64,000 bases of DNA from Escherichia coli (GTDB lineage: Bacteria; Pseudomonadota; Gammaproteobacteria; Enterobacterales; Enterobacteriaceae), in NCBI RefSeq assembly GCF_030013205.1, contig NZ_CP122648.1. The stretch is one strand, 5' to 3'. The notes beneath the pieces are model-generated. The model worked only from the letters and a program-made list of their open reading frames with translations. It had not been told where the DNA came from and made no database searches. The translations under genes and the position numbers were made by a program. Within the stretch, counting starts at the first letter, position 1; each line of letters begins with the position of its first letter. Of the stretch, positions 62,772 through 64,000 are shown one piece after another.

Positions 62772-63266
62772 TTATGAACAACTGTCCATGATTTCGTTTA
62801 AGAATGAAGAGAAATCACTAAACGAACTGAATATATTTTCTGTGCCAATATTATCTCTAATTTCAAAAAAGTTACTTTTAATGTCATAAGTAAATATTGA
62901 AATGCTATCATCACCGATCACTAACCGTTCTTGTAGATCAGGGTTTATGAAATCATCATTATTTCTATAAAATTCATTTACGGCAAAAAGGTTTTTAACT
63001 GAAGGTTCTGGAATCGAGAGGCTAAATAATCGTAATCCATTAGCTTCGAATCCATCCATTGCTCTTAAAAAAGTAAGATAATCAGGTTGATTATTAAAAA
63101 GAATACTAACTTCATTACATAATTTCTCCAGGCAATTAGTTGAATTAGAATTAAATTCTATTTGGATTATACTTTCAATAAATGATTCCTTGAGCGGTGC
63201 TTCAAATGGATAGTCTAAATCATTCATCATTTTTTTTAATTTATTTATTTGGGTTTTAGTCATCAT
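62772..63266 (-). CDS. yrhA: putative immunity protein for the YhhZ nuclease toxin
   Basis: 164-aa ORF immediately downstream of yhhZ with a 4-nt overlap; AT-rich; naming follows my recollection of the K-12 locus. Confidence 0.6.
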   Translation of the reverse strand: MMTKTQINKLKKMMNDLDYPFEAPLKESFIESIIQIEFNSNSTNCLEKLCNEVSILFNNQPDYLTFLRAMDGFEANGLRLFSLSIPEPSVKNLFAVNEFYRNNDDFINPDLQERLVIGDDSISIFTYDIKSNFFEIRDNIGTENIFSSFSDFSSFLNEIMDSCS

Positions 63267-64000
63267 TTTGTGGGTTCCATAATATTTTTCATGGGAGGAT
63301 AAATTGAGCCAGATGGAATGGCCCAGGGAGTGATTTTGCTTTCACCTACTAATACTCCCTTAGCTATTCGTGATTGCATGTTAGTAAAAACTTTATGATA
63401 TGGTTCGTTTTCGATTAATACTAAATTTTCGAAATCATTAGTACCACCATCATCTAGAGATAGTTTATGGTGAACATTATAATTTAGAGGAACATTGCCC
63501 TTTCTCATTCTTAAAAGGTCTTCGGCGTTGAATCTTCCAGATGCTTCGGAGGTTTTTGCAAGTTTGATAAGAAAATTTTTTCTTACAGTTTTATTAAACT
63601 CCTTTCGTAAGTTAGCTAAGTCTTTTGAAGATCTCTTAATGTATATTATTTCTATTATGTCTATACCATCAAGAAGTTTTTGTTGACCTCTAAGTTTGCC
63701 TAAGTAACTATTTATTTCTGTATATGTATCAACATTAGAACGCTTTGTTAAAAGAATAGATGCTGTTGCTATCGCTATGCCCGCTGTTTTTTCATTTAGT
63801 ATTTGATCATAGCCTTTTATTGCATCTCCACCCAGTTTTTCCGCAGTATCTCTGAATCCTTCAATGTTCCCATTGTATACGCCACCAGCAGCAAGTAGCC
63901 TGCCAATAGCTTTGCTGTTTAACGTTTTGAAACCATTATTTGTTTGGTTTTTTGAATTTGGTAAAAACAAACAGTTAAAATTTTCAGGGAGTGCCAAATA
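63263..64000 (-). CDS. yhhZ: Hcp-fused toxin, C-terminal HNH-nuclease-like domain only; N-terminus lies beyond window end
   Basis: Frame open to the window edge; HNH-like NYNVHHKLSLDDGGTNDFENLVLI near the C-terminus. Confidence 0.7.
   Translation of the reverse strand, partial: YLALPENFNCLFLPNSKNQTNNGFKTLNSKAIGRLLAAGGVYNGNIEGFRDTAEKLGGDAIKGYDQILNEKTAGIAIATASILLTKRSNVDTYTEINSYLGKLRGQQKLLDGIDIIEIIYIKRSSKDLANLRKEFNKTVRKNFLIKLAKTSEASGRFNAEDLLRMRKGNVPLNYNVHHKLSLDDGGTNDFENLVLIENEPYHKVFTNMQSRIAKGVLVGESKITPWAIPSGSIYPPMKNIMEPTK

Follow-up and report, generated by a model that had tools for sequence, protein, structure and literature searches.

The effector-immunity pair Hcp-ET1/ETI1 of Escherichia coli (strains STEC004, O104:H4 C227-11 and 55989) was reportedly described by Ma et al. 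in 2017 (Virulence 8:1189). Hcp-ET1 is an HNH-type deoxyribonuclease (DNase) effector that is delivered by a type VI secretion system (T6SS), T6SS2, inhibits bacterial growth and is neutralized by the product of the tandem gene ETI1 (PMC6730261, PMC6099711, bioRxiv 10.1101/2024.03.05.583533). Both T6SS-dependent secretion and antibacterial activity have been reported for it (PMC6730261), and neutralization by ETI1 has been reported in a study that names strain 55989 (bioRxiv 10.1101/2024.03.05.583533). Here, we describe the genes yhhZ and yrhA at the end of a 64,000-nucleotide stretch of E. coli DNA (contig NZ_CP122648.1; the whole stretch is referred to as the window). We propose that this island very probably encodes a specialized T6SS effector, in which an Hcp domain, a linker and an HNH DNase domain are joined in one protein (YhhZ), together with an immunity protein of the SUKH fold (YrhA), and that it is present in its uninterrupted, ancestral form. 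The locus of strain 55989 has the same order as the one described here, yhhY-tssD-yrhA-yrhD-yrhB-ggt with a TssD of 392 amino acids, and the identification of YhhZ and YrhA with Hcp-ET1 and ETI1 is strong but indirect.

Both genes lie on the minus strand. The yrhA gene (62772..63266) is intact and encodes 164 amino acids of SUKH-fold protein, the putative cognate immunity protein (ETI1), whereas yhhZ, a tssD-type gene for an Hcp-ET1 effector, runs past the window edge and is represented by its 3' part (63263..64000; codons 148-392 and the stop codon). The yhhZ open reading frame (ORF) enters from beyond the edge and ends with TGA at 63265..63263, which places 245 codons (aa 148-392) inside the window; a "TTG start" at 63997 in the ORF list was rejected as an artifact of the window edge. 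Read directly from the sequence, the yrhA ATG (63266-63264) and the yhhZ TGA (63265-63263) form ATGA at 63263..63266, which suggests that translation of the two genes is coupled. Over positions 57000-64000 (7001 nt), the window matches E. coli K_EC180 (swine, Korea) with 100% identity, and over positions 1-50000 with 99.99% identity; K_EC180 DNA was used as a stand-in for the part of yhhZ outside the window; in K_EC180, yhhZ is an intact coding sequence for a full protein of 392 amino acids. The RefSeq annotation of the identical DNA lists tssD ("Hcp1 family T6SS effector"), yrhA and yrhB. The neighboring genes, namely, ugpC, ugpQ, yhhA, ggt, yrhB, a small yrhD-like ORF, yrhA and yhhZ, are those of the E. 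coli yhhY-ggt region, and G+C content falls from 52.2% at window positions 1-62000 to 31.5% at 62314-64000, with the drop starting directly past ggt and G+C content staying low until the window ends. An earlier note, made from the letters of this stretch, had named the genes yhhZ and yrhA, pointed to a 4-nt overlap between yhhZ and a 164-aa downstream ORF and called the segment AT-rich, and was right in all three respects.

A 2-kb query from the island found a match in 4090 of 5426 complete E. coli genomes, with at least 80% query coverage in 3759 of them, and the match was always chromosomal. Therefore, yhhZ-yrhA(-yrhD-yrhB) is a common accessory insert, rich in AT, that occupies a fixed position on the chromosome between yhhY and ggt. 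Its two main members are real genes and not chance ORFs, because YrhA matches the NCBIfam model NF038335 ("YrhA family") at E = 3.4e-37 (127.6 bits; cutoff, 55) and YhhZ matches TIGR03344 at E = 1.2e-34 (119.6 bits; cutoff, 58.9). A scan for promoters and terminators across 61900-64000 returned nothing exceeding shuffled expectation.

The TIGR03344 match marks an Hcp domain at the N terminus of YhhZ (aa 1 to ~150), in the K_EC180 DNA beyond the window edge. The earlier note had anticipated such a domain, and it is present in this DNA, which is 100% identical to the window over the last 7 kb of the latter. The domain was also detected with PF05638 (E = 7.4e-12, 46.1 bits; cutoff, 23.5), and Hcp structures in the PDB match YhhZ at E-values from 2.5e-12 (Hcp3) to 1.9e-10. 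Residues 1-169 share 60% identity with the Hcp head of the characterized effector Hcp-ET3-4 of strain UTI89, and within this similar part the window encodes the end of the Hcp domain and its junction with the extension (63929..64000, minus strand; aa 148-171, containing YLALPENFNCLFLP). The junction is followed by a conserved pre-toxin linker (63746..63928, minus strand; aa 172-232) that opens with KTLNSKAIGRLLAAGGVYNGNIEGFR and continues to GYDQILNE and a hydrophobic helix, TAGIAIATASILL; conservation along this linker is high, with the pattern GRLLAAGGVYNGNIEGFR...GYDQ and then the hydrophobic helix.

Altogether, YhhZ extends ~240 residues beyond its Hcp domain, and the core of this extension was modeled as a colicin/pyocin DNase. 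An AlphaFold2 model of the toxin domain, built from a 24-sequence alignment, reached a mean pLDDT of 81.7 and exceeded 90 over the core. In a Foldseek search, its top matches were DNase domains, namely, those of pyocin S2, pyocin AP41, ColE7 and ColE9 (4qko, 4uhp, 1mz8 and 1fsj), all with a probability of 1.0 and with root mean square deviations of 2.4-2.9 Å (~2.5 Å) over 77-82 columns, corresponding to the beta-beta-alpha-metal fold. Likewise, a profile of the YhhZ family matched ColE7 (E = 6.5e-4), with VHHK aligned to the HH of ColE7 and N339 to N560. Model, Foldseek matches and profile together delimit a folded toxin domain at 63314..63709 (minus strand; aa 245-376), whose DNase core is colicin/pyocin-like and of the HNH (His-Me finger) type. 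Within it, the alignment of homologs marks H324, H325, N335, N339 and H349 as the likely catalytic and metal-binding residues (63395..63472, minus strand), none of which varies among 24 homologs (51-98% identity). The same domain contains the motif NYNVHHKLSLDDGGTNDFENLVLI (residues 320-343; window 63413..63484), which the earlier note had described as HNH-nuclease-like at the end of the partial YhhZ, a description with which the fold and the profile agree. YhhZ has also been classed as a His-Me finger nuclease of group 32 (PMC5714182). By modeled fold and by profile, the C terminus of YhhZ is thus a colicin/pyocin-type HNH DNase, and its DNase activity is predicted from the literature and by analogy with these enzymes.

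YrhA belongs to a small family, for which an exhaustive HMMER search retrieved 64 representatives; among 41 aligned members of the family, 15 matched SUKH Pfam families (SMI1_KNR4, SUKH_5 and SUKH_6), at E-values that reached 1e-7 to 1e-8. The AlphaFold2 model of YrhA (pLDDT 89.9, pTM 0.86) found SUKH/Knr4 proteins as all of its top 11 PDB matches, at probabilities of 0.75-1.0 (at least 0.96 in 10 of the 11), among them Bacillus subtilis YobK (2prv), Listeria Lin2918 (2icg), yeast Knr4, BF1740 (3d5p) and PSPTO_5518 (2pag). The YrhA profile also matched Lin2918 by sequence (2icg, E = 0.0035). This confident model indicates a SUKH (SMI1/KNR4) fold. YobK is the immunity protein to the YobL toxin, and in the work of Zhang, Iyer and Aravind on polymorphic toxin systems SUKH is said to be more widespread than any other fold among the immunity proteins to secreted nuclease toxins. 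By analogy, and from what is described for Hcp-ET1/ETI1, YrhA would neutralize YhhZ. A predicted HNH DNase followed by a SUKH immunity fold is in keeping with the toxin/immunity-like module that the earlier note had proposed.

The pairing extends beyond E. coli. Residues 172-392 of YhhZ share 67% identity with the C-terminal part of 381-aa proteins of Enterobacter, whose first 168 residues are unrelated to YhhZ and bear the precomputed Pfam label DUF8093 (PF26362). No BLASTP similarity was found between the DUF8093 and Hcp heads, and the DUF8093 head gave no PDB relative by profile and no match in the local Pfam copy. The gene directly 3' of the Enterobacter DUF8093-HNH toxin encodes a 166-aa protein that is 62% identical to YrhA and, because this homolog adjoins a closely similar toxin module with an unrelated head, the toxin module and YrhA travel together despite the head having been swapped. 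The position of a cognate immunity gene directly downstream of the toxin, in E. coli as in Enterobacter, constitutes genetic linkage only. Across Enterobacter and metagenome contigs, linker and HNH domain stand behind DUF8093 with a YrhA homolog always next and no T6SS genes nearby, and a third type of head occurs in Pantoea (P0237, P0240).

The linker, too, is found in other company. It is common to DUF8093-headed toxins with other warheads, and stands N-terminal to a colicin D domain (P0319; PF11429, E = 3.5e-18) and to unassigned C-termini (P0303, P0304). We speculate that aa 172-232 (GRLLAAGGxYNGNxEGF...GYDQV plus the hydrophobic helix, outside the nuclease) could be a portable, uncharacterized pre-toxin module shared by Hcp- and DUF8093-headed Enterobacterales proteins with HNH DNase, colicin D tRNase or unassigned C-termini, a suggestion that we regard as doubtful. 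Such a module might serve entry across the inner membrane of the target cell or loading onto the secretion machine, and if this proposal is true, the same toxin cassette would have in DUF8093 a new domain for its delivery.

The state of yrhA sets this locus apart from that of K-12. The earlier note had mentioned an IS1 copy in or next to yrhA in K-12, and comparison with BW25113 places a 768-bp IS1, named IS1E (PMC12428005), inside yrhA between 9-bp direct repeats of TTTAATGTC; the K-12 YrhA is cut after residue 129 and ends, after a short IS1-encoded tail, at 138 amino acids. In the window, the same 9-mer is present as a single copy at 62877..62885, an empty target of the K-12 IS1, and the segment is free of IS elements, as had been stated. 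Of 5426 complete E. coli genomes, 3413 matched a 100-nt probe for the empty site over at least 80% of its length, and at most 375 matched a probe for the K-12 yrhA/IS1 junction, a number given as an upper bound because some of the listed matches are two-piece joins with IS1 at other spots. Listed single-piece junction matches were K-12 or laboratory strains, and the few listed two-piece joins were field isolates with IS1 elsewhere near yrhA. Given these frequencies, the uninterrupted yrhA is ancestral and far commoner; it is what E. coli normally has, and K-12, with its yrhA broken by IS1, is the exception. What the earlier note had tentatively called an intact version of the module is therefore intact, with yrhA whole, though not special. 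K-12 BW25113 (retrieved-locus coordinates 4619-6210) itself combines an intact yhhZ, with all catalytic residues, and a truncated yrhA, and so carries a toxin gene without a whole immunity gene. A spontaneous yhhZ-yrhA deletion has been reported in an MG1655 topA mutant clone (bioRxiv 10.1101/2024.10.07.617030), which could have been mediated by IS1 or could reflect toxicity on derepression. Absence of IS elements applies to the yhhZ-yrhA segment and not to the whole window, because an IS1397 copy of the IS3 family is present between livJ and panM (window ~47100-48450, K_EC180-derived coordinates).

We propose that YhhZ, with its Hcp tube-protein domain (aa 1 to ~150), linker (aa 172-232) and HNH DNase (aa ~245-376), would form part of the Hcp tube in a T6SS and be shot into neighboring bacteria, in which the HNH domain would degrade DNA. 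YrhA, translated from the overlapping ATGA junction, would bind and block the nuclease in the producer and its kin. The K-12 lineage gained its IS1 at window 62877-62885, and the yrhA of the window is the ancestral form. This proposal builds on observed gene structures, domain identities, folds, conserved catalytic residues, the adjacency of toxin and immunity genes and the empty IS1 site with its frequency; DNase activity, T6SS-dependent delivery and neutralization by YrhA are predicted by analogy and from the literature. A number of points weigh against it, some in the proteins and some in the host. YhhZ stays below the gathering score of the Pfam HNH family PF01844 (17.9 versus 21.4 bits); among its homologs, P0237 passes at 25.8 bits and P0145 scores 21.0, and the low score is a threshold issue, not evidence against the HNH fold. 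T353 occupies the position of the last metal ligand of ColE7, H573, in a manual extension of the profile alignment, and thus one ligand differs. Once a chance-level Pfam hit to Aegyptin_C (E = 0.11) and antibody chains from a single-sequence PDB search (E > 0.07, judged to be noise) are rejected, YrhA has no Pfam family match at E ≤ 1 and no PDB sequence match. The orthology of Hcp-ET1 and YhhZ rests on secondary sources and on the 55989 locus. With regard to the host, the aspV island of K_EC180 (retrieved-locus 32007-44891) holds a T6SS cluster with tssB, tssC, tssE, tssF, tssG, tssJ, tssK, tssL and hcp that looks degraded, as tagH has an internal stop, tssH is truncated (without its C terminus) and adjoins a VasL fragment, and tssM, tssA and vgrG are not annotated in it. 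Finally, since K-12 tolerates an intact yhhZ next to a truncated yrhA, the toxin gene is probably silent or weakly expressed. The aspV cluster is flanked by a truncated Rhs gene and an ISAs1 pseudogene.

As the aspV cluster is the only T6SS cluster located, delivery of YhhZ may fail in this strain; this lineage, like K-12, may be unable to deliver the effector, with immunity as its only useful function. The module might then be a retained but undeployed relic, with a silent toxin gene on an H-NS-bound AT-rich island and no working T6SS, whose only benefit lies in the protection that YrhA (and YrhB) would give from E. coli firing YhhZ-type toxins. Consistent with this, the metV-mltA site, which we take to be a candidate site for a T6SS island, is empty in K_EC180; yhhZ has remained intact in K-12, which has no T6SS, even though yrhA is truncated there; and ~69% of complete E. 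coli genomes have the locus, at a site in the core genome apart from T6SS clusters. A section devoted to H-NS binding also names yhhZ and yrhA among the "promoter islands" of K-12 (PMC3661553). However, the T6SS check in K_EC180 covered the aspV and metV-mltA sites only, and two intact ORFs with invariant catalytic residues suggest continuing selection on the toxin as well. We consider this account possible but rather unlikely; it concerns use in the host and is compatible with what the genes encode.

A toxin gene and a smaller neutralizer gene with overlapping stop and start codons, on a chromosomal AT-rich island, would also be expected of an intracellular toxin-antitoxin or addiction module, or of an antiphage defense in which the HNH nuclease could act on invading DNA, instead of an interbacterial weapon. 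Yet a cytoplasmic toxin-antitoxin system has no use for an Hcp secretion domain, YhhZ, YrhA and YrhB matched no PADLOC model (E ≤ 0.01), SUKH proteins such as YobK are typical of immunity to secreted polymorphic toxins, and a toxin gene that precedes its immunity gene and has exchangeable N-terminal heads follows the pattern of polymorphic toxins, which makes such a role very improbable. Even less credible is the notion that YhhZ is a mere structural Hcp tube protein and yrhA an unrelated small gene. The RefSeq product name in many genomes is indeed "type VI secretion system tube protein TssD," and Hcp is the only domain of YhhZ matched above curated thresholds, but canonical Hcp proteins have ~160-170 residues (163-195 aa among the PDB matches) and lack the long YhhZ extension that folds, in the model, as a colicin-type DNase, and in Enterobacter this extension co-occurs with YrhA where the Hcp domain is missing.

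The AT-rich island ends in a second immunity-type gene, yrhB (62029..62313, minus strand; 94 aa), which matches Imm35 (PF15567) at E = 7.9e-22 (77.6 bits; gathering score, 27.5) over model positions 1-85 of 85. It has no adjacent toxin gene and hence is an orphan immunity gene. A decayed toxin partner in 62314-62771 was considered and rejected; ORFs there are all ≤54 aa, and alignment to K-12 and 55989 shows just the small yrhD. The yrhD-like ORF (62552-62686, minus strand; 44 aa, no match in a domain search) differs from that of K-12 and 55989 by a 9-bp tandem duplication at 62597-62614 (GGCTAAAAT twice on the plus strand, adding 3 aa) and by a TAT>TAG stop (62552-62554), which shortens it to 41 aa counted from its ATG (62552..62677), versus 51 aa in K-12/55989. 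Identity to K-12 is 94.9% in the yrhB-yrhA interval and 98.8% across yrhA-yhhZ. Elsewhere in the window, a second polymorphic-toxin locus lies between nikR and yhhJ (~19180-26360, from the K_EC180 annotation), with a frameshifted RHS element core gene that is interrupted or followed by IS1, an RHS C-terminal fragment, the sel1-repeat gene yibG, an Imm57 immunity pseudogene with a frameshift and an incomplete ISAs1 transposase.

Taken together, the module represents one allele of an effector-immunity pair that is already known from the literature, here in the uninterrupted form that is usual for it. It has little significance past a correct annotation, namely, that the K-12 reference with IS1E in yrhA represents an atypical state, which is useful to users of K-12 as a model for the yhhZ-yrhA locus and to students of IS1E. 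Of additional value are the three-part anatomy of YhhZ, with Hcp head, shared linker and HNH warhead, and the recurrence of both linker and warhead in Enterobacter and relatives behind a different, uncharacterized head (DUF8093), in each case with a gene of the YrhA type. Only two points are mildly new, the proposed portable GRLLAAGG linker and DUF8093 head in other Enterobacterales toxins, and the degraded T6SS cluster in K_EC180.

Compared to Hcp-ET1/ETI1, the module shows no substantive difference; the 55989 proteins differ from those of the window at 13 of 392 (YhhZ) and 4 of 164 (YrhA) amino acids, making the window an allele of the same genes, with identity inferred from the strain name and description. 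In K-12, YhhZ and YrhA (b3442/b3443) are orthologs at the same site, and YhhZ has 12 changes among its 392 residues, all outside the catalytic ones; IS1E interrupts the K-12 yrhA past codon 129, whereas that of the window is whole. The UTI89 effector Hcp-ET3-4 (UTI89_C0121) has the same subtype of Hcp head and a common ...HLIANTEF..LA.P..YN.LF.P junction, beyond which the two proteins diverge completely. It likewise ends in an HNH-type colicin DNase followed by immunity genes, but differs from YhhZ in its aroP-pdhR locus, its longer extension (pyocin S3 plus colicin DNase, in a protein of 593 aa) and its lack of the GRLLAAGG linker, and its immunity genes are of the Im-type "bacteriocin immunity" kind, as opposed to SUKH for YhhZ. 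Three such genes lie downstream of Hcp-ET3-4 at aroP-pdhR in UTI89 (retrieved-locus 19400-22865), and the site is empty in K_EC180. The DNases of ColE7/E9 and of pyocins S2/AP41 are the best structural and profile matches, with HH...N...H of YhhZ aligned to H544/H545 and N560 of ColE7, and to H569 by manual extension. These enzymes are parts of bacteriocins whose delivery depends on receptors and on Tol or Ton, whereas YhhZ is a T6SS Hcp fusion; their immunity proteins are four-helix Im proteins, whereas the partner of YhhZ is of the SUKH fold, and the ColE7 ligand H573 is T353 in YhhZ. For YrhA, the best PDB match of the model is YobK of B. subtilis (2prv, E = 7.4e-4, TM score 0.54-0.57), which resembles it in its small size and in having its gene immediately downstream of that for a nuclease toxin, although sequence identity to YobK-type SUKH proteins is ~10% and YrhA, below Pfam SUKH detection, has its own NCBI family, NF038335.

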